From Schmidtea nova (taxonomy: Eukaryota), in assembly GCA_044892505.1 (NCBI GenBank), contig CM097883.1, forward strand, positions 349,680,001 through 349,744,000: DNA of 64,000 nucleotides, written 5' to 3'. Positions 3,114-52,100 of this stretch are shown piece after piece; the first letter of the stretch is position 1; the number at the start of each line of letters is the position of its first letter. Position numbers and translations under genes: made by a program. A model generated the notes under the pieces. The model worked only from the letters and a program-made list of their open reading frames with translations, had not been told where the DNA came from and did not search any database.

Positions 3114-5325
3114 TGGCTGGTTGTCTAGTTTTTATTTAGGGTCACCCGCATAAGCAATTATTTTTGACCATACACCCGTTAACTCGCGGACTAAGTCCGC
3201 GTTGGTACTGTGTATGTTGTCGCAGGGTAAATAGGCAGGTGAGCTATTTTTCAATGATTACTCTCTATTTACACCCACTCGGATTCCATGACCGATAGAA
3301 AGTCTTATCACTTCAGTTCAGAATCTCAATCGAACTCAAACAGCTAAATACATTTATTACCAATTACAACACAAAGTTCATTCCTCCAAGCACATGGGAT
3401 AACCTCCATGAGCAAGTCTGATTCAGATAGATTCTGCCTCTCGTTAACTTGCATGGTCAATTGATTTGCAAACCCCTTCTTTTGGAGACGTCGCATTGAG
3501 CCAATTTTCTTTCTCTTTGAGCCAATGCGAGTAGTAGCTGCTTATACTACTTGTACTTGTACTTTTATTTTTTTATTTTATTATTAGATTCGCGTTTTAT
3601 CTGTTATTGGTAATTTATTTTTTCTTGCTCTAGTTTTAGATTCTGTTGCGTGACGTGTTAAAAAAATATACCATATACCATTCTTGTACCCTCGCTGTTC
3701 TCCGCCTTTCAGTCGCTAGGGTTATAACACGCACATTAATATCTTACTGCCATGCACCCGTAAATACCCTATTTATTTACATTAGTACTGTGCATTACAG
3801 CCGACTACCAATCGACAGGTGAGCTCCGTTACTACTCTGGATCGGACACTCGTTCGGGTTCTACTAGACCGATAAGAGGTCACCTTTTCTTCCCCTCACC
3901 CTTTCGCAGGTTACTAATTTAGGGTGGTAACTCTTAATCCTTTTAAACCTGTCTTACTCACTCATCGTCGGAAAAACGTTATGTTACTTTAATTTCGAGA
4001 CATACATATACGATATTTTACCCCAAAACAACAAATTCATTTATATAATACATATAATTAAACCACATATCAGATTATACATATCAGTTCGATTTAAATT
4101 TTTGCTTCCGTCTCTTGCGGATTAGGTGACTGTCGACTCTGTTCTTCCTCTAACCTCTGCTTCGATCGACGTCGACGCTGAGCGTGAGTACGTTGACGTT
4201 GTCTCGTCCCCTTACTGGTTTCTCCATTCGTGAGAATTTCATCATTTCCCACTGGGTGTTGGATACCATTCCGCCAAGGTGATCAGCCTTATTAGCCCTT
4301 CTAACTCTTGCTACAAACTGTTGAGAGATGTGCTTCCTACAGTTTCCTAGCTCCATCTGTACTGCAGTTAACTCTAATCGGCACTCCTCCAGTGCCCTCG
4401 TCGTGTGCAGCAACTTATCCTACACAACCATCATCTCTCCCGGGGAGAAATAATTCCCCTCCAAATCTAGGATTCGTCTCATTAGGCCTCCGATTTTTCT
4501 CAAAGATTCTCTCTGTTCCTCTCTACTCGATAATTCTTGTAGATGGTTTATTTCGGTATACTGATGTTGCATTCTATTCTGAAAATGTCATACATACAGA
4601 TTTGATTTATGAAGGTTAGCGCGTTTTTTATTTTCTCTTTCCTCAATCTGGCGATTTTATAATCTCTCTGCGTTTATGTCGTCACTCGCAACTAACTGTT
4701 TTCACCCCGATCCTCCGTCTAACCCCTAATCTCGATATTCGATTCTAAGTGTGAAATACTCTGTCTCCTACCGAAGCTCGTTAACTCTCACGATCGCACC
4801 ACTGTCTACCATTTACAATCTACTAGGGTTATTCGCAACCGAATGAATTCAAGTCATCAAAAAAAATAAGACATGACCATTAATATTTTAACGTGAAAGC
4901 AAAACGACAACTATCACGAAAGTTACATCAAATCACAATTATTTATTCAATCCACTGAATCAAGCGACCGAGGGATTATGGGGCGACTAGGTGGGCTCGC
5001 TGGACGGCCCATCTGCCAGAACCCCTCTTGTGGAATCGTTCCATTATGCTGAATGAAATATCCACCAGGGATCTCACTTGGGCTCTCCACAAAATATTTC
5101 GGACAGTCCGGCGTGTACTCCCTCTCGAGATCGATCGGTCACTCCTGGCTTCCGTGCCAGATGACCTCATCAGGACTATCACAGAAGAGGCTGAAGGACG
5201 GTGCCTCTCCCGTACTTGCAAACGTGCGCTGGTGGTCTGTGGGAATGCATTTTAATGGCATCGCAAGGATCAAATGGTTGTTGAATATGGCGGGTTGGGG
5301 ATCCATGCTCAAGACCGACGCCTCC
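3114..5325 (-). mobile_element. Degenerate LTR-like unit (family E) with two copies of the conserved LTR motif; interrupted by the Chapaev element
   Basis: 3137-3900 parallels 43645-44040 (AGGGTCAC, CTAGGGTTA, CAGGTGAGC, GACCGATA). Contains a coiled-coil/Arg-rich ORF remnant. Boundaries are approximate. Confidence 0.5.
4084..4413 (-). pseudogene. LTR-encoded coiled-coil protein with Arg/Lys-rich tail, premature stop
   Basis: ORF 4150-4413 continues in frame past its TAG as RKNRVDSHLIRKRRKQKFKSN*. Resembles the ORFs at 12873 and 49656. Confidence 0.5.
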
Positions 5326-5668
5326 CACACTGTACCGGAAGGGCCATCTAAACTTTAAAAAACGACCCCTAAATGGATTGCGTTTTTTAATAGTACTATA
5401 GGCACAGATGTTGAAACAGTATATCTACAAAATCCTGATTGAGCTATTTAGGAGCAATTGACGAAAATCTGTAAAATGAGATTGAAGCAAAACTATTTAA
5501 ACCGTACGCAGATTTTTTTCACATGAAAACATGAGAACAATGACATGAGCCATCCATGTAATATGTACACTTTATTGTTGACTTATCAGATGCACAGTTC
5601 GTTAAACACAACGGGGTATAGATGGAGATGGACTGGAAGGTAATTATAATGTAATGGCATCATAGCAG

Positions 5669-7180
5669 TTACAAGTGTCGAGAATTGTAGCGAATAATAC
5701 AGTCCAAAAGGTGCTTATCGAAATGGACATGATTTTCACTAACTTTGCCAGCTGATATCCACATGGCTTTAAAATCTGTATGTACTGCCTCCGATGCTTG
5801 TTCATTGAAATGGCCGAGGCTGGAGTTCTTTAGTTTACAAAAATGAATCAAGTGAACACAAACAATGTGTACTGCTGTTGTTATTGCTATGCCCGTATTC
5901 ATATAAGCTGTCTCAAATTTTTTTATAGACTCTTCAAAACCAGCATGTAGCACCTGACCAAAACAGTCGCTAATAACACTGTTAAATGCTGCAAAGGATG
6001 TTGCAAACTTAATGATTTCAGATTTCTTACCAGTGGTGTGGAGAGTAGGTGCATGATGTAGAAGTCGACGACACATGTTACCTGTAAACTCGCCGCCATG
6101 AAGCTGAGGTTGTACGAGACCAATTTGTTGGAGCCACAGTTCAGCTACTTTAGGAAATGATGACTGCAGTTGATGAAACATTTTGTTTGTAACGCGCAGC
6201 ATTAAGTGGAGCTGCAGCGGAGGAATAATTTCAATCAGCATTTGTTTATCCTCGCCTTGAATCATAGGAGTGTGCACGCAGCTTTTGAAATCTTTAGCAG
6301 ATGCTTTAGGGTTGTATACTCTTCTCTTGTTCTCATAATCCCGAGCTTGCTTTTTGATTTCACCTATCGCTCTTAGTTTCCAATTGTTGTTGATTTTCTT
6401 GATATTTGAAAATTCTTTCTTTGGACATTCGCAAAACATACAAGGATACGCACTGGAATGTGATTGCAGTCCACATAATATGTTTGCTATTTTCAGATCC
6501 ACCGCGTTAACATACTGAAAGTCTATTTGATCAATTTTTAAGAGTTGTAGAATGTAACGAACATTCTCATATGTTTCTTTAACCTTATAGGCTATTGCGA
6601 TGATAATGAGCTTCTTCACGCTTGTATCGAGCATGGCTTTTTCAATAAGTTTCTTTGACGGATTAGTGATGGGTTTTTCGGTGGATTCAGCATTGCTAAT
6701 GTTTAGACAGAATTTAAAAAAATCTTCACCTGTATCAATTCCAATCTTGATGGAAACATTTTCTTTATCCAAATTTCTCTTCTCACACACTAGGTCTATC
6801 AGTCCGACAACATCATTACAGTAAACAACTGTACAGGATGCAGTCGCATCAACTCCTTTGTTGGTAGAGGTGCATTCAAAATCGTGGCTAAGGCAATCAA
6901 AATATTCAGCACATGTTTTGTTACGTCGTTGAAGTTGTTCTCCAATGAATGATTCTACCGAAGTTCGGCCAAACATGCTTCTAACAAAGGGTATAATTTT
7001 ACGTTTCATATCATTATTAGGCGCTGACAATAAATTTTGAAGTTTCGTTACACCATCTACACTAACTTGCACAATGGACAGACTTTCTTTAGAGCCAACT
7101 TGAACTTGCAGAGGGTATGAACCACCAGAATAAAACTCCTTGGTTGACACTTTGTATCTTTCAGTCGATCGTTTTATCAT
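5669..7180 (-). CDS. Chapaev transposase catalytic core (503 aa)
   Basis: Long ORF inside the TIRs with KIGIDTG, AVDLKIANILCGLQSHSSAYPCMFC, LQLHLML and LGHFNEQASEAVH motifs. Confidence 0.8.
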   Translation of the reverse strand: MIKRSTERYKVSTKEFYSGGSYPLQVQVGSKESLSIVQVSVDGVTKLQNLLSAPNNDMKRKIIPFVRSMFGRTSVESFIGEQLQRRNKTCAEYFDCLSHDFECTSTNKGVDATASCTVVYCNDVVGLIDLVCEKRNLDKENVSIKIGIDTGEDFFKFCLNISNAESTEKPITNPSKKLIEKAMLDTSVKKLIIIAIAYKVKETYENVRYILQLLKIDQIDFQYVNAVDLKIANILCGLQSHSSAYPCMFCECPKKEFSNIKKINNNWKLRAIGEIKKQARDYENKRRVYNPKASAKDFKSCVHTPMIQGEDKQMLIEIIPPLQLHLMLRVTNKMFHQLQSSFPKVAELWLQQIGLVQPQLHGGEFTGNMCRRLLHHAPTLHTTGKKSEIIKFATSFAAFNSVISDCFGQVLHAGFEESIKKFETAYMNTGIAITTAVHIVCVHLIHFCKLKNSSLGHFNEQASEAVHTDFKAMWISAGKVSENHVHFDKHLLDCIIRYNSRHL

Positions 7181-7230
7181 TGAAGTTGCGTTCTTCTATC
7201 TGTAGATACACACAATTCTACAATGTTCTT

Positions 7231-7722
7231 TCATAAAGCCTGTACCGTACACTTATGAGGAATGCCCCTCCCATAACGAGTCCGACATGCACTGCACACC
7301 GTCATGATTTTTTCCGGTGGGCCACAGGCTGTACTTTCGTCTTTTCGTGGGCGACCCTTCTTTGCCTTTGACATTGACTTCCCAGATTGCCTTGCTGTTT
7401 CGCAAATTTGACACTCGCAAACTGGAATCGGGTCTGATCTAGTTGTTGTAGTATATGGCGCTATCACACGGAAATCAAAAGGTGTCGGTAATACGCTGGT
7501 AGACTTCTTTCCGTCAATAATGTCTAGCAAATTAGAGCGACACCTGCTGCACATTCCACATGGTAAATTTTGTTTTGTCATCTCGTAAGTTGGCATAAAG
7601 TAACGACGAATTCTTGCTAACACGACATCTGTGATATTACAGTTTGATTGGTTGAAGCAAATAAGGCATACTTTCTTCCTGTTTTCTTCATGATTCAATG
7701 CACGGGTTTCATGAAATGGCAT
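7231..7722 (-). CDS. Chapaev transposase N-terminal exon (Chapa zinc finger, AT-hook)
   Basis: HEENRKKVCLICF...LPCGMCSRCR...CECQIC Cys/His pattern and KKGRPRK. Preceded by an acceptor-like TTTTCAG on the minus strand. Confidence 0.75.
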   Translation of the reverse strand: MPFHETRALNHEENRKKVCLICFNQSNCNITDVVLARIRRYFMPTYEMTKQNLPCGMCSRCRSNLLDIIDGKKSTSVLPTPFDFRVIAPYTTTTRSDPIPVCECQICETARQSGKSMSKAKKGRPRKDESTACGPPEKIMTVCSACRTRYGRGIPHKCTVQAL

Positions 7723-8015
7723 CTGAAAAGAAAATTTTAGCGTTACATTTTTAGAATACTAAACATGAATATCATATTTGAAAAAAAAACATTGCACTAA
7801 TAAAGTAACTTTTACAAAATACCTACTTAAAAATGAAATAAAATATGACACTCAATCTTACCACCGTATTTTTGTAATAATGACTTGTAGATCACACCAC
7901 CGCGCAAACTTGAACTTTAAAACAAACGAATAGTTTACTACTTAATACCAAATAATATTATTATATTCTGACATTGAAACATATTAAATGTGTCGCCGTC
8001 TAAAACTACAGAAAA

Positions 8016-8203
8016 NNNNNNNNNNNNNNNNNNNNNNNNNNNNNNNNNNNNNNNNNNNNNNNNNNNNNNNNNNNNNNNNNNNNNNNNNNNNNNNNNNNNN
8101 NNNNNNNNNNNNNNNNNNNNNNNNNNNNNNNNNNNNNNNNNNNNNNNNNNNNNNNNNNNNNNNNNNNNNNNNNNNNNNNNNNNNNNNNNNNNNNNNNNNN
8201 NNN
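8016..8203. other. Assembly gap (N run)
   Basis: Run of N bases. Confidence 1.
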
Positions 8204-8401
8204 ATTAACTTAAAACTATAACGTTCTATGCTTTACTCCTAAATAGCTCAATCAGGATTTTGTAGATATACTGTTTCAACATCTGTGCCTATAGTACTAT
8301 TAAAAAACGCAATCCATTTAGGGGTCGTTTTTTTAAAGTTTAGATGGCCCTTCCGGTACAGTGTGCTCCCCTATCGTTTGATTCAGTCGCAATTGGGTAT
8401 A

Positions 8402-9325
8402 CACTAAAACCTCGATTTGCGTCGGTAATAGGGACACAAATCGAAATAATTTTTCCTGTGTTTCTTCATGTTTTCTCTTAATTGGTTCTAGACTGAAATA
8501 TTTATAGAAAAAATCCAGAATCTTGTTTCTAATAAAAAATACACACACACATTTAATGCAACAAAATTTTTTTTAATTCCAAATAAGTTAAAAACATAAA
8601 ACTTAATAAAAAAAACATAAAAAATAATAAATAAAATAAAAAATATTAAATTAACACCAAAATAAGTATAATTTTCAGTTATAGTTTAGATAATTTATTT
8701 TTGTATTCCGAACTTGACGATTCTAACTCGATAACCGTTTCTGTTGACTGATTTATTTTGTCGTGCTGATTTTTTTAAAAAAAATAATCCAAAGTTTGCT
8801 GAATTTTATTTGCCTGTTTTTCCAAATAAATTTCTTTATAACAATTGATAGCGTCAGCTACAGATTTTGCCACTTTTAAACTTCGATTTTCGTCGGGATC
8901 ATTATCTGAAAATATGTCCATTGCTTGACCAGTCGTTAGATTTTTTATTTCTGGAATAACATCAGGTGTATCCGTATCATCCTCCAAAGCATGCTCAACA
9001 CTTACAGCAATCAAATCTTCATTAGTCAGCCCTTCATCGTGTGACACCAATAACTCATCAATATAATTCTCTTCCATACCTTCAAAGTTTGCTTCTCTAG
9101 CGAATTCAGCAAGTTCTCTACGAATTGATGGTAGAGCATCACTTTCCTCTGTAGGTTTTATTGTTTCCTTTGCGGTTTATGGTTGTTTTCTCTTTCTATA
9201 ACAGAAAAATTCGAATTTTGTTAGATATGACTGAAAAAATTGGGAATCCCTGTTTTAAATTTTAGAAACGCAAATAGAAAATTTAACGACGCAACTTCGA
9301 AACAACGCAAATCGAGGTTTTGGTG
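8402..9325 (-). mobile_element. Deleted pogo/Tigger-like DNA transposon
   Basis: Inverted ends CACTAAAACCTCGATTTGCG / CGCAAATCGAGGTTTTGGTG with TA on the left. ORF 8775-9077 (IDELLVSHDEGLTNEDL...QQTLDYFF) resembles a Tigger transposase C-terminus. Confidence 0.65.
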
Positions 9326-9381
9326 CAGATATTCATTGCTTGGTATTCCTATTTAAAAATCACAATTGTTAATTAATAAGA

Positions 9382-11366
9382 TGTTGGATTATGTTCTCGA
9401 ATTATGTCTGTCACGACTAATTTGAATGGTTTTACACAATCAACGTTCACCTATCTCCGTCCTCTTCAGCCCTACTCTGGCTTTACACTTTATATTGATT
9501 TGAAAACAATTTTATGTGTTTTTATATATTTATTTGTATTTTAATTATCCCTATATTTAATTTACTCTTTGTGAAAATCAGATACACATTAAAAACAAAA
9601 TTTAGCCACTCCAAATATTCAGCGCAGTCAACGTCTCCCATATCATTGCAATATGTGTTGCAAATAAAATGTCTCGCAGTCACTCTACTGTTTTGCCTCC
9701 CCTATCCCTAGTTATCTCTAATCGCCACCTGCTAATTTTTGCTAATGGAAATCCATTAGGAGAAAAACTCACCACCCGTCTCTCTCCACGAGTCACTGAA
9801 AAATCCATTAGTCGTAATCACGCAACTTTTCTACATCTTCCTCATACTCCCCCTCAAATGCTCTTCGGATAATGGATTTGCGTGCAATTACCACTTCATC
9901 GGTCGGATAATTTATTCAGCCAATTAGGAGCTATTATCTACTGCTTTGCTGGCTCTCGGGTTTCTACTGTAACACTCGCTTGTTGACTAATTGAAAATTT
10001 CAATTACATCATCTCTCCTCTATTGGCACACACTAGGATGACAACTAATTCCCGGACGTTGTATTTACGCTTCTCTCACATTTGATCAGTTTCGGGTTGG
10101 GATGGCAGGGTTTTATGAAAAATTTCCTCATTATAGAAATTGTTCAACTGGCCGAGGAGTGGCGGCTACTAATTCTGAATTACTCTAATTTACTCGTTGT
10201 GATGGAAAACGTATTAATAAATTTCAGATGGGATTTCTATCAACTTCTAGCGGCAAACTCATTCGAGTTGAGGGTTTTTTGGAAATAGGGTTTTACACCG
10301 GGGTCATCCCTACGATGTAAAAATTGGACAGGAAATTCTCGAACAGGAACATGTTGCTTGCACGAACTCGTTCGCGTATATTACCCAAACCCCACTGACG
10401 TTTAAAGGTCCATTTTGGAAATTTCGACCGAAACATTTCTCGTGATGAAATTCATTATGGCATCGACAACTGGTCACTGACTCGGAAAGATAATTCTTCA
10501 GGGCATCTACTGACATTTACTGAGATTCTACTTAAACCCTGGGGTTGATTTATGACGGGAATTACTGTTGTCGCAGCCTTCAGACATTCGCTACCAACTC
10601 TTCTAGATTTACTTATCTTGCTGTGCAGTGGTTCCTCCTTCCGTCCCACACTCGAAGCGCGAAATGGGAGGCGAAACTACCTGAGAGCCGGCAACTAAAC
10701 ATTATATGAGAAATAGTTCGTAAAAACCAAAATAACGCATTTTATACCAAAATATTTATTAAATAATAAAAATTTTCTTACAATTCCTTCTATTGATAAT
10801 TTCCGTGCAAGTTACAATTCGTCCTCCGAGTCTTGTCGAAAATGAATGAAAATGTTTGCTAAGATGTCCTAAGGCTTAAAGAATGCTCTCCATACTGACT
10901 TGAGCGCCCCTTTATATACAAATTTCGGCCCTCAAGCAGCCAGTGAGAATCGTTCTTGATTTTCATTGATTCATTTAGTCGTGAATTCAATATTTTTATT
11001 ATTTTCTCTTTCTGGTTAATTATTTTCTTTTTGTTATTATTTTCCATTTAATTCTATTAGTTAATTTTAATTCTTTTTCTTTTATGCATTGCAATCAGTT
11101 TTTCTCATTTTTATTTTATTTTAATCCGTTCTTTTTACTTGCCAATATTTTCTTAATTTTTTATGTTCTTTCATCATTGTTTACATTTGTTATTTTTTAT
11201 TTCTATTTAATTATTTAAATTTATTTCCTCATGTGTAACATTATTCATGTGTGTACTAACCCAACAATTCATTTCATCAATTTGGCTTTATCTGATAATT
11301 TTGGTTCATTTTATTTTTTATTTATTTATTTTATGTCTTGTTTTAGATCGGGTTGTCATCCCAACA
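9382..11366 (-). mobile_element. Old LTR-like unit related to families A/B
   Basis: Starts TGTTGGATTATG and ends CCCAACA, with a degenerate shared motif near 9900-9970. No TSD found. Confidence 0.35.
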
Positions 11367-11768: not shown

Positions 11769-11772
<4 letters not shown>

Positions 11773-11774
11773 AT

Positions 11775-12331
11775 GTATATAATTTAAACAAAACCCAAAA
11801 TAGCGATAAAACTATAAAATAGCGCTTTTAATTTGAATAAATATTTACTTTATTTAAACAAAACACAAAATAATGAAAACTTCGAAAATAGCGCTTTCAA
11901 TTTAAATGAATATTTACTTTAGTTAAAGAAATACAAAACGGCTAACAATTATATTAAAAATAGCGCTTTAAATTTAAATAAATATTTACTTAATTTAAAC
12001 AAAACACAAAATGGCGATAAAACTATAAAATTGCGCTTTTAATTTAAATAAATATTTACTTAATTTAAACAAAACACAAAATGGCGATAAAACTATAAAA
12101 TTGCGCTTTTAATTTAAATAAATATTTACTTTATTTAAACAAAACACAAAATGGCGATAAAACTATAAAAATAGCGCTTTTAAATTTAAATAAATATTTA
12201 CTTTATATAAACAAAATACAAAATGGCGATAAAACTCTAATGGTAGCGCTTTTAATTTGAATAAATATTTACTTTATATAAACAAAATGGCGATAAAACT
12301 ATAAAAATAGCGCTTTTAATTTGAATAAATA
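11775..12331. repeat. AT-rich minisatellite (~60-65-bp unit), left part
   Basis: Tandem TTTACTTTATTTAAACAAAACACAAAATGGCGATAAAACTATAAAAATAGCGCTTTT... units. The array resumes at 29453. Confidence 0.9.
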
Positions 12332-12872
12332 TGTTGGATTCATGGAAGGTTTAATAAAAATTCTAATGATTGCTAGGGATCTCCCATCCATGATCATGCA
12401 TAAATAGTCGTAAGTTACACTCGAGCGCCCTTGATTATTTCCCTTGATAACCAAGTTGGTGATGCACAGGGTGGCTAAACAATGAGGGGCAGGTGAGCAC
12501 TATTGCTAGGACTACTCCCCCTTTATGTTTACGGGTTCACGCGGCCGTAGAAGGACTTACGCAATTGTTGTTATTCGGTGTACGTGTGATTTTATGTATT
12601 TATCATTAATCGCAAAAAAAAAAACAAAAACGAAACTACTAATTCGATAATATTTAACTTTTCAACGCTACTCCCTTTGTTGTGTGACATGTGATTTAAA
12701 TTTAATTATTATGAATTGTGTAACCGAAGGAAATACATAGGAAATAACAAAAAAAAACAAACAAGCAAAAGTTTAATAAACACAAAAATCTGATATCATG
12801 TTATGATTTTATTTGCTACAAAATTTCCTTGAAAATTCCTTCGGGAGGGAATATCTCTGATAACCACTCGGC

Positions 12873-13406
12873 TTACGACATTTCTGCTATAGTGGCCACT
12901 TGTGCTTGCAGCTGCTGAGAGAACAGCTTCCTTTGGCGACGGCGCTTGGAACCGATTCGCTTTCTCTTGTTCGTTTTTCCGACGGGATTTGGTGCAACGG
13001 TGGATTCTATCGGACTTTGTACTGTTGTTACTTCGAGACCATCGGTGTCGGTACTGACTGAGCAGGCCACTTTCTGTTCTCCTACCCATTTCTGGTAGGT
13101 GATGGGACGGATTTGTGATCTCAATTCGGACTCGATAAAAGAAGTCGTCACAGAATGGAGACATCGGCGCAACTCAATTTTTGTTGCTTCCCATTCTGTG
13201 CGATAATCTTCAGCTGTCTTTTGAGCCCTTTCCGTTCGACTCATCTGTTCCTTCATACGGGCTGGGGCGAACCAGCTGGTTCGTAAATACTGAATCTGAG
13301 CTTCTGCCTTAGCTCGTAATGCTTTTTCTTGATTTAACTCCTTTTCTAATGCTCGGCGGATTCTCCACGCCTTATCCAATTCCCGTTGTTGGCTGGTTTC
13401 CGTCAT
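12873..13406 (-). CDS. LTR A-encoded coiled-coil protein with C-terminal Arg-rich motif (177 aa)
   Basis: Intact GC-richer ORF with heptad-like N-half and KRKRIGSKRRRQRKL. Parallels 49656-50219. Confidence 0.6.
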   Translation of the reverse strand: MTETSQQRELDKAWRIRRALEKELNQEKALRAKAEAQIQYLRTSWFAPARMKEQMSRTERAQKTAEDYRTEWEATKIELRRCLHSVTTSFIESELRSQIRPITYQKWVGEQKVACSVSTDTDGLEVTTVQSPIESTVAPNPVGKTNKRKRIGSKRRRQRKLFSQQLQAQVATIAEMS

Positions 13407-13926
13407 GCTAAATGATAAACCTAGTTTATGATGCTGAAATTATACTACCCACGGCTAATACTATCCGCCGAGTGGAAAAATTTGGATAATTAAATTAATA
13501 AATGGATCGAAATTCAACTAATAACAAACAAAAAAAAAGATCAACACCATTTAATTGATGAAAACATATTAATTCATAGTAGTGTGAATAACATTGTCAG
13601 CGAAAACGCTTCGCTTGGAGGCCGTGAACGGGGGTAATGTGCAACCCGTGATTGACTGGATCTCGTCGGATGTGAGCCATTGAGCAGTTCAGTTTGGGGC
13701 GTCCTTGGCCCGTTTTTGGTAGGCGATTCGGGATCAACCCAAATTGAAGCAGCTTGTGAGGTGAGATATATCCCCAATGGATTACTGTTGTTGGATTTCC
13801 GGCGATGTCCGTTAAAACTATAATGAACTGAGTTGTCGTTTCGGGGTCTCCTTCGTCCGGAATTTCCCATCCGGGGCCTCCTTCGTTCGGAATTTCCCAT
13901 CCGGGGCCTCCTCGATATATGACAGT

Positions 13927-15067
13927 TGTTGAGGTTCCAAATATTTGCTATTTGCAATCTCAACTTGTTATTGGGGTGATTCTTATATAAATATCAAAAG
14001 CAAAGTTTGTTTTTCAAAATTTTATTAATACAATAAAATTACTTTTTATTTCGTTTACAATTGTCTACGAATAACTCAAATTCTTTATTACACAAATTTA
14101 AAAAGAAAAAGTCGTATCAAATCAATTCTTGCAATTGAACCTATTGGGTGACTGTTATGTAGTGCGTGCTATATTTAATTGTGGATCCAATGTTTCTGAT
14201 CCGGGTTTTAATAAGTTTTTCAAGATTGCCTTGAAAACTCAATTTGCGCTAATTTTAAATCTTGATTTTACACTAGATTTTAAAGCTAGGATTTTTTTGG
14301 GCCCCTTTACTGATTTTTTCTTTAGTTTATATAGTAAAATTTGGTATGGATAAATAATTTAATTTCCGGTCTGATATTAAAATATTATTAAATTTAGTTT
14401 TCAATTTATTCTATACTCTGCGATTAAAATAATTATATTTCAATTTCCGTTCTTGTCGTGATATTAAAATTTTCAATTTATTCTATACTCTGCGATATAA
14501 TTATATTTTAATTTCCGGTCTTGTCACGATATCAAAATTTCCAAATTATTTCGTATTCTGTGATATTAAAATATTATTTAGATTTGATTATTTTTAAACA
14601 ACTGAATTAAATTATTTTATTTATTGATCTGTTTGTTTTATATGTATATACAACTCATAAAATAATAAAAGGAATAAAATACACATCAAGATACACATCA
14701 AGATAAAAGGAATAAAATACACATCAAGATACACATCAAGATAAAAGGAATAAAATACACATCAAGATATATTAAAAGAAAACAAATGTTTGTTGAGAAA
14801 TGTCACAATAATAAAATGTCACAATCATATTAATTTTCTTGATTTCTGTGATGGGAGTTGCAATCTTTGTTGAGAAATGTCACAATAATAAAATGTCACA
14901 ATCATATTAATTTTCTTGATGGGAGTTGCAATCTTTGTTGTGTGGCTTGGATTGGGATTCTGTGTATTGGGATTCCGCGTAAATGTTGATCCTATAGCTG
15001 TTAGGCCCTGTCCTATAATATTTATTTAGGACAAATGCTTGGATGGGCTTCCCTCGATCATCCAACA
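13927..15067 (-). repeat. 3' LTR of element D
   Basis: TGTTGAGG...CATCCAACA; identical to 26731-27871 wherever spot-checked. Confidence 0.95.
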
Positions 15068-16877: not shown

Positions 16878-17301
16878 TGTTAATTGAAGATACAAGAATC
16901 GGGATATTGATTGACAATAAAACACTAAGAATCGGGATATCGACTGATAAGTTAGTAAACGATAAAACACTAAGAATCGGGATATCGACTGATAAGTTAG
17001 TAAACGATAAAACACTAAGAATATAGATTGATAATGAGATCGAGATATGATTTTACGACTTGATTTGTGATTGGATTGAAAATTGGAACGATTTGATTGG
17101 GAGTTGGTTTGATTGTTTTGATTGTGCTGAGGATTTGATGTAAAACTGGCTTTATTGGATTGTTTGCCAAATGGGTGACTTGTTTTTCTAAAAATAAAAT
17201 GTAAATTTTTATGTTGAGAGCGTATTTCAGGTTTAACCTTATACGCTCTTTTATAGATACAGATATATGTGATTTTAATATATATTATTGACCAATTTAA
17301 C

Positions 17302-19302: not shown

Positions 19303-19362
19303 CTGTTCCTCATATATATCTATTGGCTTTTCTGCTACTAGTGCAAATATTTCAAGTGCTCC

Positions 19363-26728: not shown

Positions 26729-26730
26729 AA

Positions 26731-38806: not shown

Positions 38807-39647
38807 TCACTCGGGGACCCCTAAAATTGCGTCCCGCAATTAATTATACATAACTACTTACATCATCATACCTAAAAAGGTTATAGAAATATATACATAA
38901 ACATACAGTCACATAAGGTGATCAAATTTAATCATATTGAGTGTCAATTGATAGTCAAAATATAATACAATTATTGTCACGAATAGTTCAATGTATATCA
39001 TGAATGTTTTATACAATTTGTTCGATTATCTGGCTCGCTTTGGGTTGGGTTCGGGTTTTCTCATTGATTGTTGGTAGTTCATAGTGGGTTTGAATTCGAT
39101 TGAGATGGCTCTTCATTCGTTTTAAGGATCTGTTATCTCGCCTTGAAGTTTGATTGAAGATGACTTGTTTCTGCTTAAGGATTTTTATTCTGTAAGAGGC
39201 AATCAGGATTGTGATTGCAATGACAGTTACGCTGATTGCGAGGATTATTATGATGGATATAATCCATTTCTCTTGGTATTCTATTTCGGCTTGGTATAGA
39301 CTTTTTATGGGTTCTCTACCTTCTTTCAGGATTTTTCGGATCTCTTTTAATTATTTGTTGTTTATCGAGGATTTGCTGGATTTGCTGGTCTTGATTATAG
39401 GGTACTTTCTGTCGATATTCATTGATTTCTTGAATTACTTCACTGATTAGGTTGTCTACTTTGTAGATTTTGTCGGGTAGGACTCGTAACTGTTTCTCGG
39501 TGAGTTGTAACTCTTCTCTTTATAGGGTGATGGTTATTAACCATAGGAGTAGTGGTATTGCGAGCTTTCTCATCTCTTTCTTTACACATGGGTCAATACA
39601 GCTTGACACTTTTTACATATTTTATTTACACTTAATTTTCGCTTTGT

Positions 39648-40707
39648 TTAAATCAGGGTTTCATTTAGTTCGTGGAAACCTTCGTATTGCGGTTCCACCT
39701 GATTTATGGGGAGTGTCATCCATATCACCGTACTCCTCCACATTCCAACTTCCTCTCGGTATGTGTGGGATATCTGGATTTCTTCAACTAGTAAGTATTC
39801 CAGATAGTTTGCCTGCTCTGTCAGGGTTTCTATTTGTTTTTCTAATTCTGTTAATTTTTTCTCTTTCTCTTCCTTCTCCATCATTTCTGTTACTGCTGCT
39901 GTAATGCTTGTTTCTTTTGTTGGTATTGGTTTTTCTGTCAGCTTCTTTCTCAGTTCTTCGTTTTCTTTTGTCAAGTTTGTTATGTTTTCTTCATAACTCT
40001 GTTTCGTCTCTTCAGTCTTTCTTTGGTTCTTTTTAATTCTATTTTCTTCTGGGTAATCACTCCTTGATACCCATTTATATCTCTTTTCATGTTTTCCTCC
40101 TTGTGATTCCACATTCCGGTAAGCATATTTTTTAGTTGTTCTTGGTTAGCTAAGTCTTCTCCCATTCTTTGCACTTGATAAGTTAGTTCTTTAATTTTCT
40201 TTGCCTGTTCCCGGATAAATTGTTGTCTCTTTTTATTCCATTTTTTATTTGACTTCTCTTGACTGATTTTCTGTCCCAACTCCTCTTTTAGTTCGTCAAT
40301 TTCTTTATATAATTTCCAGTCATCACTGTATGCTGTTCTTTCTATTATCTCCCTTGCTTCCTTGTAAGATTCTTTCGCCTCTTTCTTCCAGTATCTTGCC
40401 TGTTCTGTGATTGAATGAATCTTATGATCTTTTTTATCTGCTGTCTATCTCTCTCTTCTCGTCGCTCTTTCATCATTCCTCTGTAGTATTCATTCTGATG
40501 TTTTAACGTTTTGTAAACCTCTTCTATTTTTTCTCGACTTCTTTGATTTGCTTTCTCCGCTTCTCTTAGTAATTCGGCTTGTCTCTCAAATTCTTCCTGT
40601 TTCCGATAATATGCGTTGATCCATATTTCGATTTGCTCCATGTAATTACTGATCGCCTCATCTTGGTGTATGGTGATTTCCTGTAGATATACCTCTATAT
40701 TTCCCAT
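39648..40707 (-). pseudogene. Frameshifted long coiled-coil protein gene (three consecutive, partly overlapping ORFs)
   Basis: ORFs 40345-40707, 39980-40279 and 39648-40112 are all E/K/Q-rich heptad-like and lie in different frames. Confidence 0.55.
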
Positions 40708-40813
40708 TTCTATAATTACAGATAAATTTTAATCATTTTATTTTTTATTATTTTTGTTTATTTGTTATTTTATATTGTTTCTGTACATTTTATTTACATG
40801 ATCACTCCTCTTG

Positions 40814-42178
40814 TCACGACAACCATCCTTTTCTATTCGCTTTCTCGTTCCTTTCCATTTCTATGTATAAGGTGTCCGCATATAGTCGTTGCCATAGGTT
40901 TTCTTGCATTATAAACATCGGTTCTCCCGCTGCTAGTCCACATTCTGTTGTTGGTTTTTCGCTCGTACTCGCATGTTTATCTGTCTCAAAGAATTTTTCC
41001 ACCGGTTTTCCTACACTTATGATTCTTATAATGACTCCTACTTTCAGGGGCCATTCTATTAGGTCGTCGTATTCCCCTTTACATAGTGAAAAAAACATTG
41101 ACACATGTGTTCCTCGTCCTCTTCCGTCTCCATTTGGGTATAGTTTCAATCTCACATTAGCCCCGTTTTTCCATAAATAAAATGGTGGGCTTATTACTGC
41201 CGTTTTCGTCATATTTCGGGCGTCTGCTAGTTTGTCTCTGAAATCTGTTGTTTTCCATAAATAAGGTGCAATTGGTAAATCCTTTCTCGTCAATTTCTCG
41301 TATTAATTTGTTATACTGTACTTTCATTTCTTTTCCCAATTCTTCGATGGCTATTATTTTTTCTTCCATCTTTTCGCGGGTTACTTCGAATTGTTCTCTC
41401 GTTTCTAATAGTAAGTTCATCATTATTTTATGCGATTCTACTTCCTTTTCTTGTTTCCGAATTGTCTGTTCTGATTCTTTTGTCGTTTCGTTTGTCATCT
41501 CAACGTGCGTTAGCAATGCTTCTTCCAGGTGTTGTTTCATTGTTTGTCGCGTCCTTTTTTCCTTGCATCCATGTTTGTTATATGGACATTCTCTTGGTCT
41601 CTCGGTACATACTTCCAGTGTTCGTGTAAATTCATTTCTTCTGTCATTTTACATTTGTTTGGACATTTGCTTACGTATTGTCCGCATACTTTCTCCTCTG
41701 TTATATTCAGGTGTTCTTCGATTTTTTTCCTTGTTTCTCGAATTCCGCAGTATTCGCATAAGATTTCTTCTTCTTTACATTCGTCTTTGTGTTCTTTATT
41801 CTTTAGAATTATTGTTTGTTGACACTTCTCGCATTCGGTTCTCTTCTCGCAATTTTCCATATGATTTTCCAGATTGTTTATTTGTCCTTGCCATCTACAA
41901 GGTGTATTTACACATTCGATTACTGTGCTCATAATTTCTCTCTGCGTTGCTTTATCCGATCTGGTTTCGCCCCACACTATTATTCCTTCTTTATATTCTG
42001 GGCATGCTGTTATTCCTGTTGCACCTAATTCTTGTATGCATTTAGTACATATTCTACATCCACATATAGTTTGTCTAGGTTTTCGTAGTAAGTTGTTACA
42101 ATTCCCGCATGTGAGCCTCTTGCTCCATTTTCTGTTTTCAGATCTCAAAATTTCGACTACTCGTTTTTCCCTGTCCAT
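40814..42178 (-). pseudogene. Intronless TRAF-family gene (RING, TRAF zinc fingers, coiled coil, MATH) with two frameshifts
   Basis: CGNCNNLLRKPRQTICGCRICTKC; CVNTPCRWQGQINNLENHMENC; SPPFY...LKLYPNGDGRGRGTHVSMFFSLCKGEYDDLIEWP is a TRAF-type MATH signature. Confidence 0.9.
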
Positions 42179-42269
42179 TTCTACAATAATATATACATTC
42201 GACTTGTTGTTTATTTTTGATTTTTCTTGTTTTTATTTTTACATATTTAAAATTTTCCGCTTTATTTAT

Positions 42270-42626
42270 CTATGGCTTATTTGTCGAATCTGGTTCCAGC
42301 TCGTTGTTTAATCTATTTATTACCCAACTCATCCATCCTTCTTCGGATTCTTCCCTTTCTCCTCTTGTTAAACGGTTTATTTCTACCGCTTGTCTTTGAT
42401 TTATATTGCTTATAGTTTGATTTTCTCTAGTGAGCTCAGTTATAACTCTTTGTTGTTCTTCTATTCTATGTAATTGTTCAAAACAGTTGTTATAACTCTC
42501 CGATAATAGAATTTGTCTTTCCACTAGTTGGTTTTGTAATGAGTTGACTGTTCGTACCATTAAATCGCACTGCGCTTTCCATCTCATGGCCATAGTTATT
42601 TCAGTTGTTTCGTCTTGTTCGTTCAT
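42270..42626 (-). CDS. Short coiled-coil ORF, unknown function
   Basis: 118-aa heptad-rich ORF co-oriented with the neighbouring cluster. Confidence 0.45.
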   Translation of the reverse strand: MNEQDETTEITMAMRWKAQCDLMVRTVNSLQNQLVERQILLSESYNNCFEQLHRIEEQQRVITELTRENQTISNINQRQAVEINRLTRGEREESEEGWMSWVINRLNNELEPDSTNKP

Positions 42627-42751
42627 TTTCTAAATTATATACATCAATCACTTTCTCGTTTTCTCTTTTTATGTATTTTATAATATCGATACCCATACTA
42701 TTACGGTAATGCTTTGTTATTTACACTATTATTTACAGTCATAATCCGCCC

Positions 42752-43233
42752 CTATATACTCCTTACTATCCTTTCGTTGTATCTCTCTTCATCTTCTACT
42801 TGCTTCCAAAATTCTTTACCTTTCGTTCTTCTTTGAAATTCTTTCTGTATTTCTTCTGGTATTTCTATTCTTTGGTTCGTAATTTTAATATCTGGCCATT
42901 GTATGGCTATTGTTTTATTTTTCCTCCTGTATATCACATATACTATTATGCTTGTTGTCAGTATTCCACACACTATTAATATTCCCATACTAATCGATCC
43001 TATTACTACTTTTCCAATGCTTGTTTCTTTGGTTTTATTCTGATTTACTTTTATCTCATATTTGTTTTGGGTTTGAGCCTCCGGCTTCTTCTTAGTTGAT
43101 AATTATGTTGGATGAAATGAGTTACAACTCGCTTCCATCGTCCGAGCTGTAAATCATGATCCTCCAAGAAAGTTAAATCAATGGCACTTGTGTACCCATT
43201 ACTATCTTCATTAGCTATGCTGTTAATATTCAC
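42752..43233 (-). pseudogene. C-terminal remnant of a single-pass membrane protein
   Basis: GILIVCGILTTSIIVYVIY followed by RRKNK. The upstream ORF 43051-43233 may be a broken ectodomain. Confidence 0.4.
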
Positions 43234-43592: not shown

Positions 43593-44768
43593 TGGCTGTG
43601 CGTTCAAAATTTTATGAATTACAGTTTTTCTTTACGTTTCAGGCTAGGGTCACGCATCAATGCATAAATACCCATTGTACTTATACCTGTATATATTCAC
43701 TGGTAAATACTGTTGGCGTGTTGTAGGTTTTCAAAATTTATTTATTTCCTAACGAGCGTCTTCCTAACTCCGCTTGGAATTATAACCATATAATCTATTA
43801 TCCGCTCTACTTTCTAGGGTTACAACACACACATAAAAAGATTTACTGTTCATACACCCGTAAGTACCCTATTTATTTTCGTTGGAAATGTGTATAACAG
43901 CCGACCGCAAATCAGCAGATGAGCTCCTTCACAAGAACTACTCCTGATTTGTCGCATCGTTCGGATTCTGCTTGACCGATAGAAGGTCTTCTCATTTCAA
44001 CTCCTCACCCGGTCGTAGGTCTCTCATTTAGGATGATCGTATTACTCTAACTTAACCTATTCTCTATAGTGATTCTTGACACTTCATGACTCTACTCCTG
44101 TTCATATACTTTCCATACACTATCAAAATTCAAACTGTAATAACTACGACGAAGATTTGTACTAGATTTGTACAACGAAGATTTGTACATAGATTTGTAC
44201 TAAGATTTTGACTTTAATATTTCCCCCGTTTAGCTTGGATCGATTGGCGTCAATTTCTGCCAATTTCTGTTTCAGTTTATGTCTTCGTTGGGCATGAGAT
44301 TTTCGGCGAGTCCTCGTTTTGGGCTTTGCTTATCCCGTTGTTACTTTCTCTGTTCTCTCCTCTATCTCTGGCGCGGGGAACCATTTTCGAGCGTTGTGGG
44401 TCTAATCATATCCGCTAGCTGAGCGGCTATGAAATGCTTGGTAATAATCCGGTGACAGTTATTAGCCTCTATCCGGGCTGCCTCCAACTCAACGCGTTGG
44501 TCTTCGATCGTGTCGATAGCCCGTCGTAGTCTCTTTTGCAACTTTCATCTCCGCAGGGGCGAAGTAACTTTCCTCCAATTCGATAATTCTCCGTTTCAGT
44601 TTCCCGATAGTTTTCATTTATGATGACGTTGGTTCCCTTGAAAATTACAATTAATACCTCGCATTCCACACCCTGATCATTCTCCAGTAACTATTCCTTG
44701 AATACCTCTGTTAGAGACAGTGAAAATAGTAGAAAAATATTGAGTTAGATGAAGACTATAGCATAGGG

Positions 44769-47122: not shown

Positions 47123-49195
47123 CTTTAAAGTAAAATAGTGTGTAACAGATAAAAGTAAAAAATGTGTTAGAATACTGAAATTGGCTAGCCCTTATGTATT
47201 ATTTTGCTAATGCTGCCGGCCAATCAGCGTTCAGTTGCCCCCATAATTGGTTGAGAATATTAAATAATTTATCCAATTAAATTGGATTGTTTTATCTTTA
47301 TAAGCTTATCAGCATTAATCGATATCGGAATATCAACATAATTAATATTTGAAGTTGGATCATTTATTGGAACAACATTTTCAATTGGATTGGATGTAGT
47401 TGTTCCTAAAAATGATTTTAATTATTTATTTATAAAATATTAAAAATTTACCATCATAATTTTCATTATCATTAACTAATGACCAATCAATGACTTTTTA
47501 TGGAATCCCATAATTTTTGATCAAAATGATAACCTAAATAAATAAATGAATACTTGAATAAAAAAATATTAAAATTGCCAGATGATTTCGTCGACAAATC
47601 TAATGATTGGTCATCTTGAACTTGAGTTGATAAATAAATAAATTTAATTTAAATATAAAATATACCTAAATCCATATTAAAAGTCATATTGTTTGAGTTA
47701 GATGTATTTGATAAATCTGAAGCTAAATAAATATTAAAAAAATTTACCTTCTATATTAGACAAATTTTGTAAATCAAGTGCTCGTGAATAATTGTAAGTC
47801 TTGTTTTAGATGATGTGAAAATAAATGTGCAACGTAATATAAAAACAATATTTTATGAATCAACTAACGTGAATCGAGATTGAAAATAATTACTTAAGTC
47901 GCGGTATTTTAAAAGTATTTTAAAGTTTTATATCGTATTTTGACACTCAAGTTTTTAAGTATAAACATTATTAATATAGTTTAATATTCAAATGTACTCT
48001 TTAAACGAAAATGGTAATAATAATTTTGGTAAGATATTTTGCGGAATGAATTGATGAAATAACAGGAATAAATGTGTTTCCATCTATCAGAAATTTTAAT
48101 TCTATACAGGAGGAATATCATTATTTATCAGACACAGTATCATTTGATGAAAACGATATTGCTTAAGAATTGGATGAAACGGAATGTACAGGCAGGGCCG
48201 GCACTAGAGTATTTGGAACTATAAGTGATCATGTCGCACTGCGCTCCCCCACGCCCACGACAACTAAGATTGAATTAATATTAACTTTCACAAAGGAATG
48301 TTATGGCTCTTTTTGTTTTAATTCGCATTTGCATTCAATAGAAAGAATATAATAGAACATTTATAATCTATATAATGGTATATTCGTTTATACCGGTAAT
48401 GTAATTTCAAAACTTTATTTTTCGCGTTTTTGCTTTAGCAAATGTAGAAAAGAGTTCCATCAGTTCAATGTCTTTCGCAATATCATGTTCAATTGACAGA
48501 GTAGCTAGACCAACAAGTCTTTCTTGTAGATTGGACGTCCGCAAATATGTTTTTATCAGTTTGAGCTTAGAGAAGCTTCGCTTCTCACTAGCCACGGAAA
48601 CTGGAAGTGTCAAGAGAATTCACAGAGATATAAAAATGTTGGGGACACTATCTGTTAGATTATTTTTCAATATAAAGTTTAGTACAGTATGTGGCGATAC
48701 ACACCTTGCAACTCGTCTTGAAATGACTTTTAGTTCACTGCTTAGATCAACTGCATCAATATCTTTTGAGTTTCCATGTTGTTAAGCTTTTTCAAGATTC
48801 AAGCAATTGTTGAGGTCTCAAATATGTGTATTTGAAATCTCAACTGGGGGTGGTGATTCCTATATAAATAAATAAGACAATAAGATGTTCGTTTGAAAAG
48901 TTTTATTAAACAATAAAATTATTACTGATAAAAATTGTACACTGATTCAATCCTTTTTACTATTTCAATACAATTTTTCAAATTCAACTTTAAAATTCTT
49001 TTTACTGTTTAAAATTTTAGTTAATTTTATATATTTTTGACCAACTGGCCTATTTTAAAAGCTCTACAGGATTTGTACCTGAGAGAACAAAATTGTTCGC
49101 AGAAATTTTAAAACTAGATTTTATGGCAATTTGATTGAATTGCCTTCTCCTTTTATACCAAAATTTAACATACAAATTACATACATTATTAATAT

Positions 49196-52100
49196 TGGTG
49201 GGTTGTTGATCGTCAATATGACCTTGACGTTGCTATGGCTCGTGTCAACAACTCAACACATAAAACATTGGAATTACCATCTTGTTACCCGTCACTATGT
49301 AACGTTGGTACTGTAACAAGTGGGTGGGTAATCGCAATCAGTGAGCGTCGTCAATACGAAACTATGATTGACCGAATATCTCCTGGGTCCAAGGGCTACC
49401 GATAGAAGGTTTAATGCCCATTTTGTCCCTACTATGTATTATTTACTTCAGAAAAACTTCATGAACTTCATTTACTATTAAACCTCAGTTGATTTTACTA
49501 AATTTATTCCATACATCCCTTTATTCAATCCAATCATTCAAATCAATAAATCAAAAAAAAAACAAGAGAAAACTTTAATGTTAACAAAAAAAACAACAAC
49601 ACCAACTACAAAGAAAATAAATAGATACACGATAAAATATTCCTTGTCAATTAAATCACAAATGAGTAATGTCTATTACTTCTGAAGATTCCTTGCGAAT
49701 TTGTCCCAGCAGTCTCGCTTCCTGCCGACGTCTTCGGCGAGCCCTCACCCCTTTATTGGGTTTCTGTCTGGCTGTTTTGGCGGGAACAGGAGGTGTCGAT
49801 ATCTGTTCCTCGACCCTCACTGGGAACAACTCTTGAGACAGACAGGGTGGTTTTGGCAGGACGGCAGCAATGAGGCCACTGTCCAATCTCAGTGTTTCAT
49901 TTTGGGTTTCCAATTCCCGGATTGTGACTCGGCACGCCCGCAATCTCATTGCGTCGTCCGCAGCCTGCTGCAACAGCATCTGGTTTTGTTTGCGGAGTTT
50001 GTCGACGGTCTCTTTGTCCGACCACGTCGACTCCATCTCCCGACATCGCGCTCGGAACTTCTCCATCCGAGAAGTCATGATTTGTAGCGCATCTGTATTG
50101 GAGGTTTTCGCCCTCTCCATCTCGGCGAAACACTGGTCTACCCGACGATTATGGCGGGCATTTTCCACAATCAGTTTGTGTATCTTCTCGAATTTCTGCT
50201 CTATATTCATTCCGGACATCTAAAAATTATACAATCATAACCCATTCCAGTCGTCATTTGACATTCACTTTCAAATATTCATTTTAAATCAATAAAAATA
50301 AAATCATTTTGATCGATGAACATTCATCGATCTTTTACAACCAACTATTATACACAAAATTTATCTCAAATCACGCATTCATTATTGCTTACAATGTTTA
50401 CCCTCAAATATACCATAGCCAACTCAATTCGGAGATTAATTCTTCCTATAAAGATGCATCTATTCGGGGACTTTCAATCGCTGTTAACTTTATCAAATTA
50501 ACTATTATATTCAAAGTGGTGCAAATTTTTGTGTTTTCCATATTTAAAATTTAGAGAAACTTGATTTATATCCTAATCCTATTGTCTATCTTGCTTTATA
50601 AATCTTTAACATTTTATTAAAATTGATCATTTGGACTTTTCAAAAATTCGCCGAGGCCTTAGCAACGGTAATAATATACATTCTATAATTTGCATGTTAA
50701 TTTTATTCTGCTGATGATCCTCTTATTTATCAATTTTAATTTTATTTCCAATTTCGAATTAAATTTTTAATTAGGAAATCCGATCTCAACCGCAACTCCT
50801 TCAAAACCCTCAACGTTCCCCCGCAAAAAGGAGAAACTATATAAACGCCAAGCAAAAATTCCACGATTTCCATTGGTTAATTCACATTATGGGATTTTCA
50901 AATCCCATAATATATTCATTGATTTTTCAATTCCTATTTTTAGGAATGGATTTCCCCTTATGAAAATTTGTCGTTGGTAAGTTAATTTTTACTTTTCCTA
51001 CAATTTTATAATTATCATTCATTTCTTTAAGCCAATTGACAAACTCTCAATCCGATGCTGATTCCAGAAAATTGCATCAATCAGTTGAACAAGATCTCCT
51101 ATCAGAGTTAAAGTAATATTTCGTAATTTATTACATAATTCAGATTTAACGTGATTTAAGTTTTAGAAGTTGCCTTGGTGAAAATCAATTTTTCGTCTGG
51201 GAAGGAAATTGGCTCTGCAATGAGGGACTTAGTATGTGATTCCGAATCTTTTTCACATACGTACTGCTAGTTCCTGCACTCCTCCAGGTTCGAATAGCAA
51301 CTTTTGTCAACTGGATTTTTTCAATTCCATCGCACTGTGATATTTCTCATTTCGTCACTCAAGGAAATTATGATCGTAGATTTATTTATGGAATTTTTCT
51401 TTCTGCTACTTGTGATGTGAAGTTTCGAACCCGATTTTAGTCCGATAACTATAGTAAGTAGATGTAGTCGACATGTTACATTTTGATAAATAAATTATTT
51501 ACTATTTGGATGTTTTCTTTTCTTAACTTGATAACGTTTATCATATATTAACTATTGTTATTAGCACTTTTTAGTTTAGCATGATACAATTGGAAAGTGA
51601 TATTTTTAGGAGTTAGACTGGGGAAATTAATACTCAAACATGAAATATTATTGAAAGGTAGTCCGAGAAGCTTAACATACTTCACCCTTTTCCCATGCAC
51701 AGTTAGCCACTAATTTTACTAAGAGTCGGAAAAAATTTGATTTGTAACCAGTTTATTGGTATAAGAATTTGGTTTTCTAAATAGGTAGTGGGAAAGTTAG
51801 GATATTGCATTAAAAGGCGAGAAATGGGGTAAGAAACTGACATTGCCACCTGGATGTAGATTACTGCTGTTAGGTATATTTAGCAAAGGAAGGTGAACTG
51901 ATCTCGATAAATATGTAGAGGATCTAAATCTCGTGTGTGGCGTGATTGATGTAGATGCAGATTGTTGGATACAATGATCGAGTGTGGTTTGTGAATAGGC
52001 ATGTTGTGTTTTATAATGCAATTTCTATATGGGATGTCGTATTTTGTTGTGGTATGGGGAAATGTAGTGATTGTAAGTTTGTGTGTATGTATATATTATT

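Follow-up and report, generated by a model that had tools for sequence, protein, structure and literature searches.

An orphan gene with a basic tail, apparently selected during element replication, in the long terminal repeats of Burro-type retroelements of Schmidtea nova

Burro and GYPSM1 elements of dugesiid planarians reach up to about 30 kb and carry multi-kilobase long terminal repeats (LTRs) together with accessory open reading frames (ORFs), according to the available part of the published account (PMC6431247). Planarian Burro activity has also been linked to stem-cell survival (as cited in the accessible portion of PMC13465017). Retrotransposon LTRs are usually taken to be control DNA that encodes no protein, and it is mainly in retroviruses that complex expression under dedicated regulators is known; complex retroviruses export intron-containing RNA by Rev-like proteins (PMC3856414, available sections). 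Here, a stretch of 64,000 nucleotides from Schmidtea nova (GenBank assembly GCA_044892505.1, contig CM097883.1, positions 349,680,001 to 349,744,000 of the forward strand), referred to as the window, was analysed for a gene that lies inside the LTRs of such elements. This gene slot is named ORF-B, and a further gene, upstream of it in the same LTR in two of the three element families (A and C), is named ORF-A. The pattern of variation among genomic copies indicates that ORF-B is an accessory gene selected while the elements replicate. As a tentative reading, its product would likely be nuclear and self-associating, with a tail that binds element RNA and favours full-length RNA, Rev-like by analogy and not by descent.

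ORF-B lies about 450-500 bp from the 3' end of LTRs of 3.1-5.6 kb in three families (A, B and C), in the same sense as gag-pol. All four minus-strand ORFs that an earlier note on this DNA had singled out are present in the translations with the peptides quoted from them, and the LTR-like units that carry them are true LTRs, with mapped ends in units U1, U3 and U5 and target-site duplications (TSDs) of ATAT in U5 and GAAT in U3. Two of the ORFs had been described as intact. The family B copy (49656-50219, minus strand, 187 amino acids) is intact, with its ATG right behind a T-rich TAG, whereas the family A copy (12873-13406, minus strand, 177 amino acids, tail KRKRIGSKRRRQRK) stops prematurely at codon 178, 19 codons short of the 196 codons of most close copies; an acceptor-like T-rich YAG stands immediately 5' of its ATG. 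These two best-preserved ORFs show no direct alignment (BLASTP E 0.12). The remaining two are family C remnants on the minus strand. One (4097-4572, start near 4572) has two frameshifts and a stop and holds its basic tail, RQRQRTHAQRRRRSKQRL, in the family frame at 4130-4204; the peptide HLIRKRRKQKF, earlier read as the tail of an ORF at 4084-4413, lies behind a stop and off that frame. In the other (44165-44650) frameshifts and stops break the ORF proposed at 44200-44669, but the tail quoted for it, RRKSHAQRRHKLK, is in the family frame. A fifth, partial copy of family A type comprises the C-terminal part (3395-3517, minus strand) and lies in an older LTR end cut by U3. Among the window copies, ORF-B is intact in one, truncated in another, broken in two and lost by deletion in one.

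Selection on ORF-B was assessed in 30 loci per family, the best 30 of 40 scored, which were gathered by non-coding LTR 3' DNA and thus not chosen by protein similarity; near-identical rows were collapsed (30 to 26 in A, 30 to 14 in B and 30 to 25 in C). Variants shared by at least two copies gave ratios of nonsynonymous to synonymous change (dN/dS) of 0.16 in family A (15 nonsynonymous to 37 synonymous), 0.10 in B (3 to 12) and 0.24 in C (33 to 50). Private variants gave 0.73, 0.15 and 0.65, respectively, and differed from the shared ones with p 7e-5 in A and p 0.0025 in C. For the two other sense frames the shared variants gave 1.0-5.2. Frames were open in 26/30 (A), 30/30 (B) and 15/30 (C) loci, where part of the family C count reflects a common stop at the last codon. 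By region, shared dN/dS was 0.10-0.16 in the helical core, 0.29, 0.06 and 0.15 in the basic tail (A, B and C in the order reported, 7-10 shared variants each) and 0.36, 0.58 and 0.40 in the linker, all from small counts and sets partly selected by protein. ORF-A, with dN/dS of 0.37 and 0.11, is selected too.

Any divergence between the paired LTRs of an element dates from the time after its insertion. Across 29 such pairs, 27 nonsynonymous and 9 synonymous differences were found (dN/dS 1.18, p 0.85 against neutrality); 16 pairs showed no difference, and a single pair contributed 8 of the 27 nonsynonymous changes, without which the ratio is about 0.83. The test covered the paired LTRs of elements. 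Judged from these copies, ORF-B has been shown to evolve under purifying selection during element replication, helical core and basic tail included, and to decay neutrally after insertion. Since shared variants are constrained and sister-LTR differences are neutral, ORF-B serves the replicating element and not solo LTRs. The refuting outcome named in the earlier note, ORFs that cannot be aligned by profile and decay neutrally, does not apply to the replicating lineage. The idea that the gene persists through selection after insertion was not supported; intact copies are intact mainly through youth.

Non-functional frames, or GC-rich cis-elements, held open through the youth of their copies would likewise decay neutrally after insertion and have no homolog outside this genome, and one antisense frame also shows a low dN/dS (0.17-0.42). 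That low value is, however, expected because this frame shares codon positions with ORF-B. Shared variation is third-position-biased in the coding frame of all three families, and families A and C are similar in protein where a DNA self-search showed no similarity. A non-functional origin is already largely refuted and is very improbable.

Relationships among the families were examined with two alignments. Alignment A1 holds 19 rows hand-picked for open frames and diversity (16 of 26 family C entries and 3 of family A), and alignment A2 holds 21 family B rows (the window copy and 20 chosen ones, some of them naturally frameshifted old copies). Profiles of families A and C align with 98% probability (E 6e-14, 73 columns). 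Family B against A and C together reached 10% in hhalign (E 0.003), colinear across 105 columns, and its score of 25.6 exceeded those of 60/60 block shuffles (maximum 20.0) and of the reversed profile (12.3). Because of this colinear match, the same LTR position, the same predicted helix break and a common downstream motif, the family B gene at 49656-50219 is probably a remote homolog of those in families A and C. Of the window copies proposed to form one LTR-borne family of helical proteins with Arg-rich tails, three belong to it with certainty and 49656-50219 probably does.

AlphaFold models of the family C and family B proteins consist of a helix, a short break, a second helix, a disordered linker and a basic helix, with the break at an aligned position and with pTM values (0.32 and 0.28) that do not resolve helix packing. 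The linker between the long helices and the basic helix measures 25-35 residues, is predicted to be disordered and is weakly constrained. Net charge is positive in 40/40 aligned rows. Basic tails with at least seven Arg or Lys in 12 residues occur in 14/19 family A and C rows and 10/21 family B rows, and such a stretch occurs in 1/17 other accessory ORFs of the same elements. From these features we infer nuclear import and nucleic-acid binding.

Database searches returned no relative. Among proteins of similar length no homolog of A1 or A2 was found, and a search of 1.84 billion representatives gave only 2 matches, both repetitive bacterial surface proteins (FIVAR, MucBP), which were rejected as summed repeat matches. 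The best score in the ESM Atlas, for a query other than family B, was 0.85, with no family; the viral fold search, with a query model of pTM 0.32, gave 0 matches at E <= 0.001, and the PDB sequence search gave nothing below E 0.1. By these searches ORF-B is an orphan gene.

Downstream of ORF-B, all three families share a conserved motif at similar distance; in the window units it follows the end of the ORF by roughly 180-260 bp and lies 200-265 bp from the LTR 3' end. In the window it lies on the minus strand at 12490-12554, 3816-3879, 43916-43986 and 49341-49409 and is kept in primary sequence. The interrupted palindrome ACC-N7-GGT forms part of it, and in families A and C its antisense strand carries a donor-like CAG/GTGAG; the motif could be an antisense promoter or splice signal. 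A ribozyme reading, hepatitis delta virus-like or other, which a 3-bp hairpin in the motif had prompted, was dropped, as neither an enclosing stem nor covariation was present. The motif might be a target on DNA. ORF-B would then be a dimeric transactivator, analogous to foamy virus Tas or to bZIP proteins, whose long helices dimerise and whose basic helix reads LTR DNA such as ACC-N7-GGT. The basic region is predicted to be helical, and the gene sits beside the putative promoter, where an early gene would be expected. Across 22 diverse copies from all three families, the motif keeps its primary sequence and shows no compensatory changes, the behaviour expected of a DNA site. However, the disordered linker parts the basic helix from the long helices, whereas bZIP proteins are not known to have such a linker; some 2.5 kb separate the TATA box from the motif downstream of it, and no significant match to any DNA-binding family was found. 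A transactivator of this kind is unlikely.

Each of four queries searched against the genome itself gave at least 150 matches, many of which form pairs spaced by 20-27 kb, and at least 150 near-complete ORF-B copies are present in each of families A and B. In separately examined full elements ORF-B stands in both LTRs, in the same sense as the internal genes. The family A element has 3076-bp LTRs (99.7% identical) and encodes Gag, a fusion glycoprotein, protease (PR), reverse transcriptase (RT), RNase H (RH), integrase (IN), ankyrin and TRAF proteins. The family C element (3598-bp LTRs, 99.8% identical) encodes Gag, fusion, protease, ankyrin and TRAF proteins, with no RT or integrase match among the ORFs scanned. 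The family B element (5507-bp LTRs, 99.9% identical) encodes ankyrin, TRAF and BIR-RING proteins and has no gag-pol, and no autonomous family B element was found among four candidates examined. A young family B subfamily with 5.5-kb LTRs holds only cargo (RING, ankyrin, TRAF, BIR-RING and membrane proteins), no gag-pol, and yet is present in many recent pairs with a spacing of about 22 kb. Families A and B have a coiled-coil ORF with a C-terminal RING-like part between the 5' LTR and gag, the RING being recognised by eye (L031:4799-5257; L187:890-1369). In an LTR at G000:C2:408222092-408244013, a family B ORF-B unit is repeated in tandem about 18 times with a 1257-bp period, and a similarly multiplied unit lies at G000:C1:222.14 Mb.

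Units of the three families measure 22-30 kb. Paired LTRs with TG...CA ends, a TSD, a primer site and a 20-30 kb unit were found, as in the Burro type, as were the order PR-RT-RH-IN with a fusion glycoprotein between gag and pol (in the family A element and in element D of the window) and TRAF/MATH, BIR, ankyrin and Bcl-2-like cargo. In all three families a near-identical primer-binding site follows the 5' LTR at a distance of a few bases, and we take it to resemble the tRNA-Pro type. Because this architecture matches that of Burro elements of dugesiid planarians (PMC6431247, as far as available), the host elements are assigned, by architecture, to a known kind, the giant Burro-type Ty3/gypsy elements. 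An element genome of 22-30 kb would also suit a component of the particle or integration complex, either a basic oligomer that condenses or chaperones the ~28 kb RNA or a nuclear carrier of the complex. Hepatitis delta antigen and LINE-1 ORF1p are analogues of such a component. N-terminal helices with a C-terminal basic tail, the net positive charge of all 40 rows and selection acting only during replication would agree with it. Gag already has CCHC knuckles, though, and for a structural protein one would expect expression together with Gag and not from an LTR leader; a particle component is quite improbable.

Candidate expression signals were found in the LTRs and between the internal genes. 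CCAAT and TATA boxes lie about 340-385 bp into the family A and C LTRs; if these motifs are the promoter, ORF-A and ORF-B lie in the R or U5 region of the LTR (not to be confused with unit U5). An acceptor-like site stands 5' of 12/26 first ATGs of element ORFs, including 3/5 LTR ORFs, compared with 37/1535 other ATGs and 10/224 in AT-rich context, and 0/2000 shuffles reached 12. Gaps between internal cargo genes measure 75-264 nt in 16/17 cases and 448 nt in one, and most contain AATAAA. TGTAHATA, looked for within 40 nt of the stop, occurs 15-20 nt past it at 13/25 ORF ends (shuffle maximum 3) and at 0/5 LTR ORF ends. The cargo row in three families follows the order stop, TGTAHATA, AATAAA and an acceptor directly 5' of the next ATG (L033:5896-9098, L137:8850-9443, L138:1292-2790, L187:6742-9265 and L188:934-3552), and remnants of such a row lie in the window at 38688-43092. 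Parasitic flatworms have operons with gaps of up to 300 bp resolved at UUNYAG acceptors (PMC12582326, in the part available). Given its short gaps, 3'-end signals and acceptors and its similarity to these flatworm operons, the cargo row resembles an operon, and cis- or trans-splicing may free the LTR genes. When contigs from four runs of unrecorded type were aligned to a family A LTR with its leader, none of the 15 joints listed, beside 62 further ones, had GT..AG ends, and depth was uneven; as contig depth cannot rank the parts of a gene, neither result was used as evidence. In family A LTRs, paired short hairpins with TGTAHATA (Pumilio-like) loops lie 5' of ORF-A, near 28312, 28366, 37576 and 37632 (minus strand).

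Apoptosis and ubiquitin modules dominate the cargo row, and ORF-B could be another host-directed effector like its BIR, RING, TRAF/MATH, Bcl-2-like and ankyrin proteins, acting in the nucleus or nucleolus to blunt silencing, apoptosis or a stress response, with the tail as an import signal only. ORF-B is intact in 30/30 young family B LTRs, while the element examined from that subfamily had cargo and no gag-pol, and protection of stem cells has been reported for the Burro1 IAP region (Lee et al. 2026, as cited in the accessible portion of PMC13465017). However, no host homolog of ORF-B was found and inserted copies show no sign of host-level selection, so that a host effector is somewhat unlikely.

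The Rev-like role introduced above is put forward as a possible one. The LTR promoter would transcribe ORF-A and then ORF-B as first cistrons, each freed at the acceptor just 5' of its ATG by cis-splicing or spliced-leader (SL) trans-splicing. The cargo genes downstream would form a row of poly(A)-like 3'-end signals and splice acceptors, and because several of these signals lie within it, the ~28 kb genomic RNA would need a bypass, a problem that Rev-like proteins solve; ORF-B would supply this bypass in trans. Such a role would fit best since ORF-B is early, promoter-proximal, arginine-rich and probably oligomeric. A leucine pattern like that of CRM1-type export signals occurs at one place in 16/16 family C rows. 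A more specific form is unlikely: an independently evolved Rev analogue in the transcribed LTR part of a gypsy-class element would switch the operon-like RNA between processing, by 3'-end cleavage and spliced-leader trans-splicing into single-gene mRNAs, and its escape from processing as full-length genome, and every young solo LTR would be a self-contained two-gene unit able to act in trans on related elements.

Several observations weigh against a Rev-like role. The earlier note had raised a likeness to Rev, Tat and Rex; kinship was not supported, as Pfam, PDB sequence and viral fold searches gave no similarity to Rev, Rex, Rem or Tat. It had also suggested the conserved LTR motif as a possible target; a structured RNA target there was not supported, as only a 3-bp invariant hairpin with 0 compensatory pairs on either strand was found in 22 diverse copies. 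No TAR (trans-activation response)-like hairpin was found in 80-nt segments taken downstream of the putative TATA box (z -1.1 to +0.9), and an Rfam scan of the whole window gave no match. The export-signal-like pattern is present in 0/3 family A rows and, at the aligned place, in only 8/21 family B rows, which include no young intact copies. CCAAT/TATA motifs were found in 7/13 further LTR-bearing sequences and were not found near the family B 5' end, and the TGTAHATA-loop hairpins occur in family A LTRs only, with none in the B or C LTRs checked. Element D has transposed recently without an ORF-B found in its LTRs, and in foamy viruses the export of unspliced RNA does not involve a Rev-like protein (PMC3856414, available sections). 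The basic tail is equally compatible with a plain nuclear localisation signal (NLS) or with DNA binding.

The window as a whole is a nest of LTR retroelements, almost all on the minus strand, in an AT-rich genome of 1.25 Gb. U1, a family A solo LTR on the minus strand, is split into a 3' part (12332-13926) and a 5' part (27872-29452) by the younger element D, which is nested at 13927-27871 (minus strand, 1141-bp LTRs 100% identical, TSD CAGT). The split runs through ORF-A of U1, with its 3' part at 13603-13926 (minus strand) and its 5' part at 27872-28076. Element D has matches to Gag, a Bcl-2-like protein, fusion glycoprotein, protease, RT, RNase H and integrase, with the fusion glycoprotein between gag and pol; an internal stretch of 177 bp is exactly duplicated in it (25867-26227), and one of its frames, of 842 codons (14907-17435), has its end within the 3' LTR. 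U1 was inserted into a 70-bp tandem repeat array (11770-12331 and 29453-29760). U3, a family C solo LTR (3644-11266, minus strand), holds an ORF-A remnant at 4962-5288 and a DNA transposon (5326-8365) that is bounded by 133-bp terminal inverted repeats and has a 508-codon frame weakly matching DUF1280. ORF-A proteins of families A and C share a central motif recognised by eye, and a search for ORF-A in the family B LTR of the window gave no match. That LTR, U5, is a 5.6-kb solo LTR (49196-54798, minus strand) inserted into a family D solo LTR (48808-55472, TSD ATTG). U4 is the 3' part of a family C LTR (43711-44650, minus strand, 3' end at 43711 or 43719), whose 5' end was not found. U2 (36841-38806, minus strand) is the 3' LTR of a truncated family A-like element; it keeps ORF-A (37026-37463) and has lost ORF-B through a deletion seen in U2 alone among the copies listed. 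An ORF-B-less lineage behind U2 was rejected, as no other listed copy spans its junction and its relatives carry ORF-B. At the left edge, 1-1946 is the 5' part of a further family B LTR with an internal duplication of about 700 bp, and decayed transposase-like frames lie at 56532-58063 (minus strand) and 61527-62747 (plus strand, DUF4371 match).

Three Burro-type families carry, inside their LTRs, an orphan gene that is under selection and conserves its basic tail, which points to a gypsy element with a dedicated regulator. ORF-B offers an entry to how a ~28 kb multi-gene element yields single-gene mRNAs as well as a full-length genome. Since families A and B each have at least 150 near-complete copies of the gene, proteins made from LTRs could be abundant, but selection after insertion was not seen in the 29 LTR pairs tested.

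The elements described here share with Burro/GYPSM1 a mononegavirus-like fusion glycoprotein between gag and pol and TRAF/MATH, BIR, RING, ankyrin and Bcl-2-like cargo; the available part of that account does not mention a gene within the LTR, a basic-tail protein or an analysis of selection (PMC6431247). Literature searched for genes inside Burro LTRs and for Rev-like or trans-spliced retrotransposons gave no description of Burro LTR ORFs, which the primary Burro papers (Grohme 2018; Jurka 2007; Lee 2026) may have. The present analysis adds the three-family comparison, the selection on the basic tail, the neutrality after insertion and the negative tests of the proposed RNA target. Plant LTR retrotransposons (Grande gene23, Retand, PvRetro13) have extra ORFs located between pol and the 3' LTR and for the most part antisense; they are orphan, some are nuclear or SMC-like, and they have been proposed to act like retroviral accessory proteins (PMC7264820, in the part available). 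ORF-B is likewise an orphan accessory ORF, but it lies inside both LTRs and in sense orientation.

Like the Rev-like proteins, namely HIV-1 Rev (human immunodeficiency virus type 1), Rex of human T-cell leukaemia virus (HTLV), Rem of mouse mammary tumour virus (MMTV) and Rej of Jaagsiekte sheep retrovirus (JSRV), ORF-B is small and basic, belongs to an element with many acceptors, probably comes from a processed RNA and, in family C, has an export-signal-like pattern; by composition and selection it also has an Arg-rich segment of a putative RNA-binding/NLS type. Unlike them, it has no sequence or fold similarity to the group and lies wholly inside the LTR behind a putative promoter, and no target resembling the Rev response element was found at the conserved 3' motif or by the window Rfam scan. 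Tat has a cysteine-rich domain and a TAR-like hairpin at the RNA 5' end. ORF-B has no such domain, with one conserved Cys in A1 and, in A2, one invariant and one common Cys far apart. Some retroviral genes lie within an LTR or overlap one, among them MMTV sag, HIV nef, the foamy bel region and HTLV HBZ, which are located in the U3 region or run antisense from the 3' LTR. Coding within LTR DNA is common to these genes and to ORF-A and ORF-B; the latter two, however, lie in sense orientation downstream of a putative TATA box, so that a solo LTR would hold promoter and genes together.

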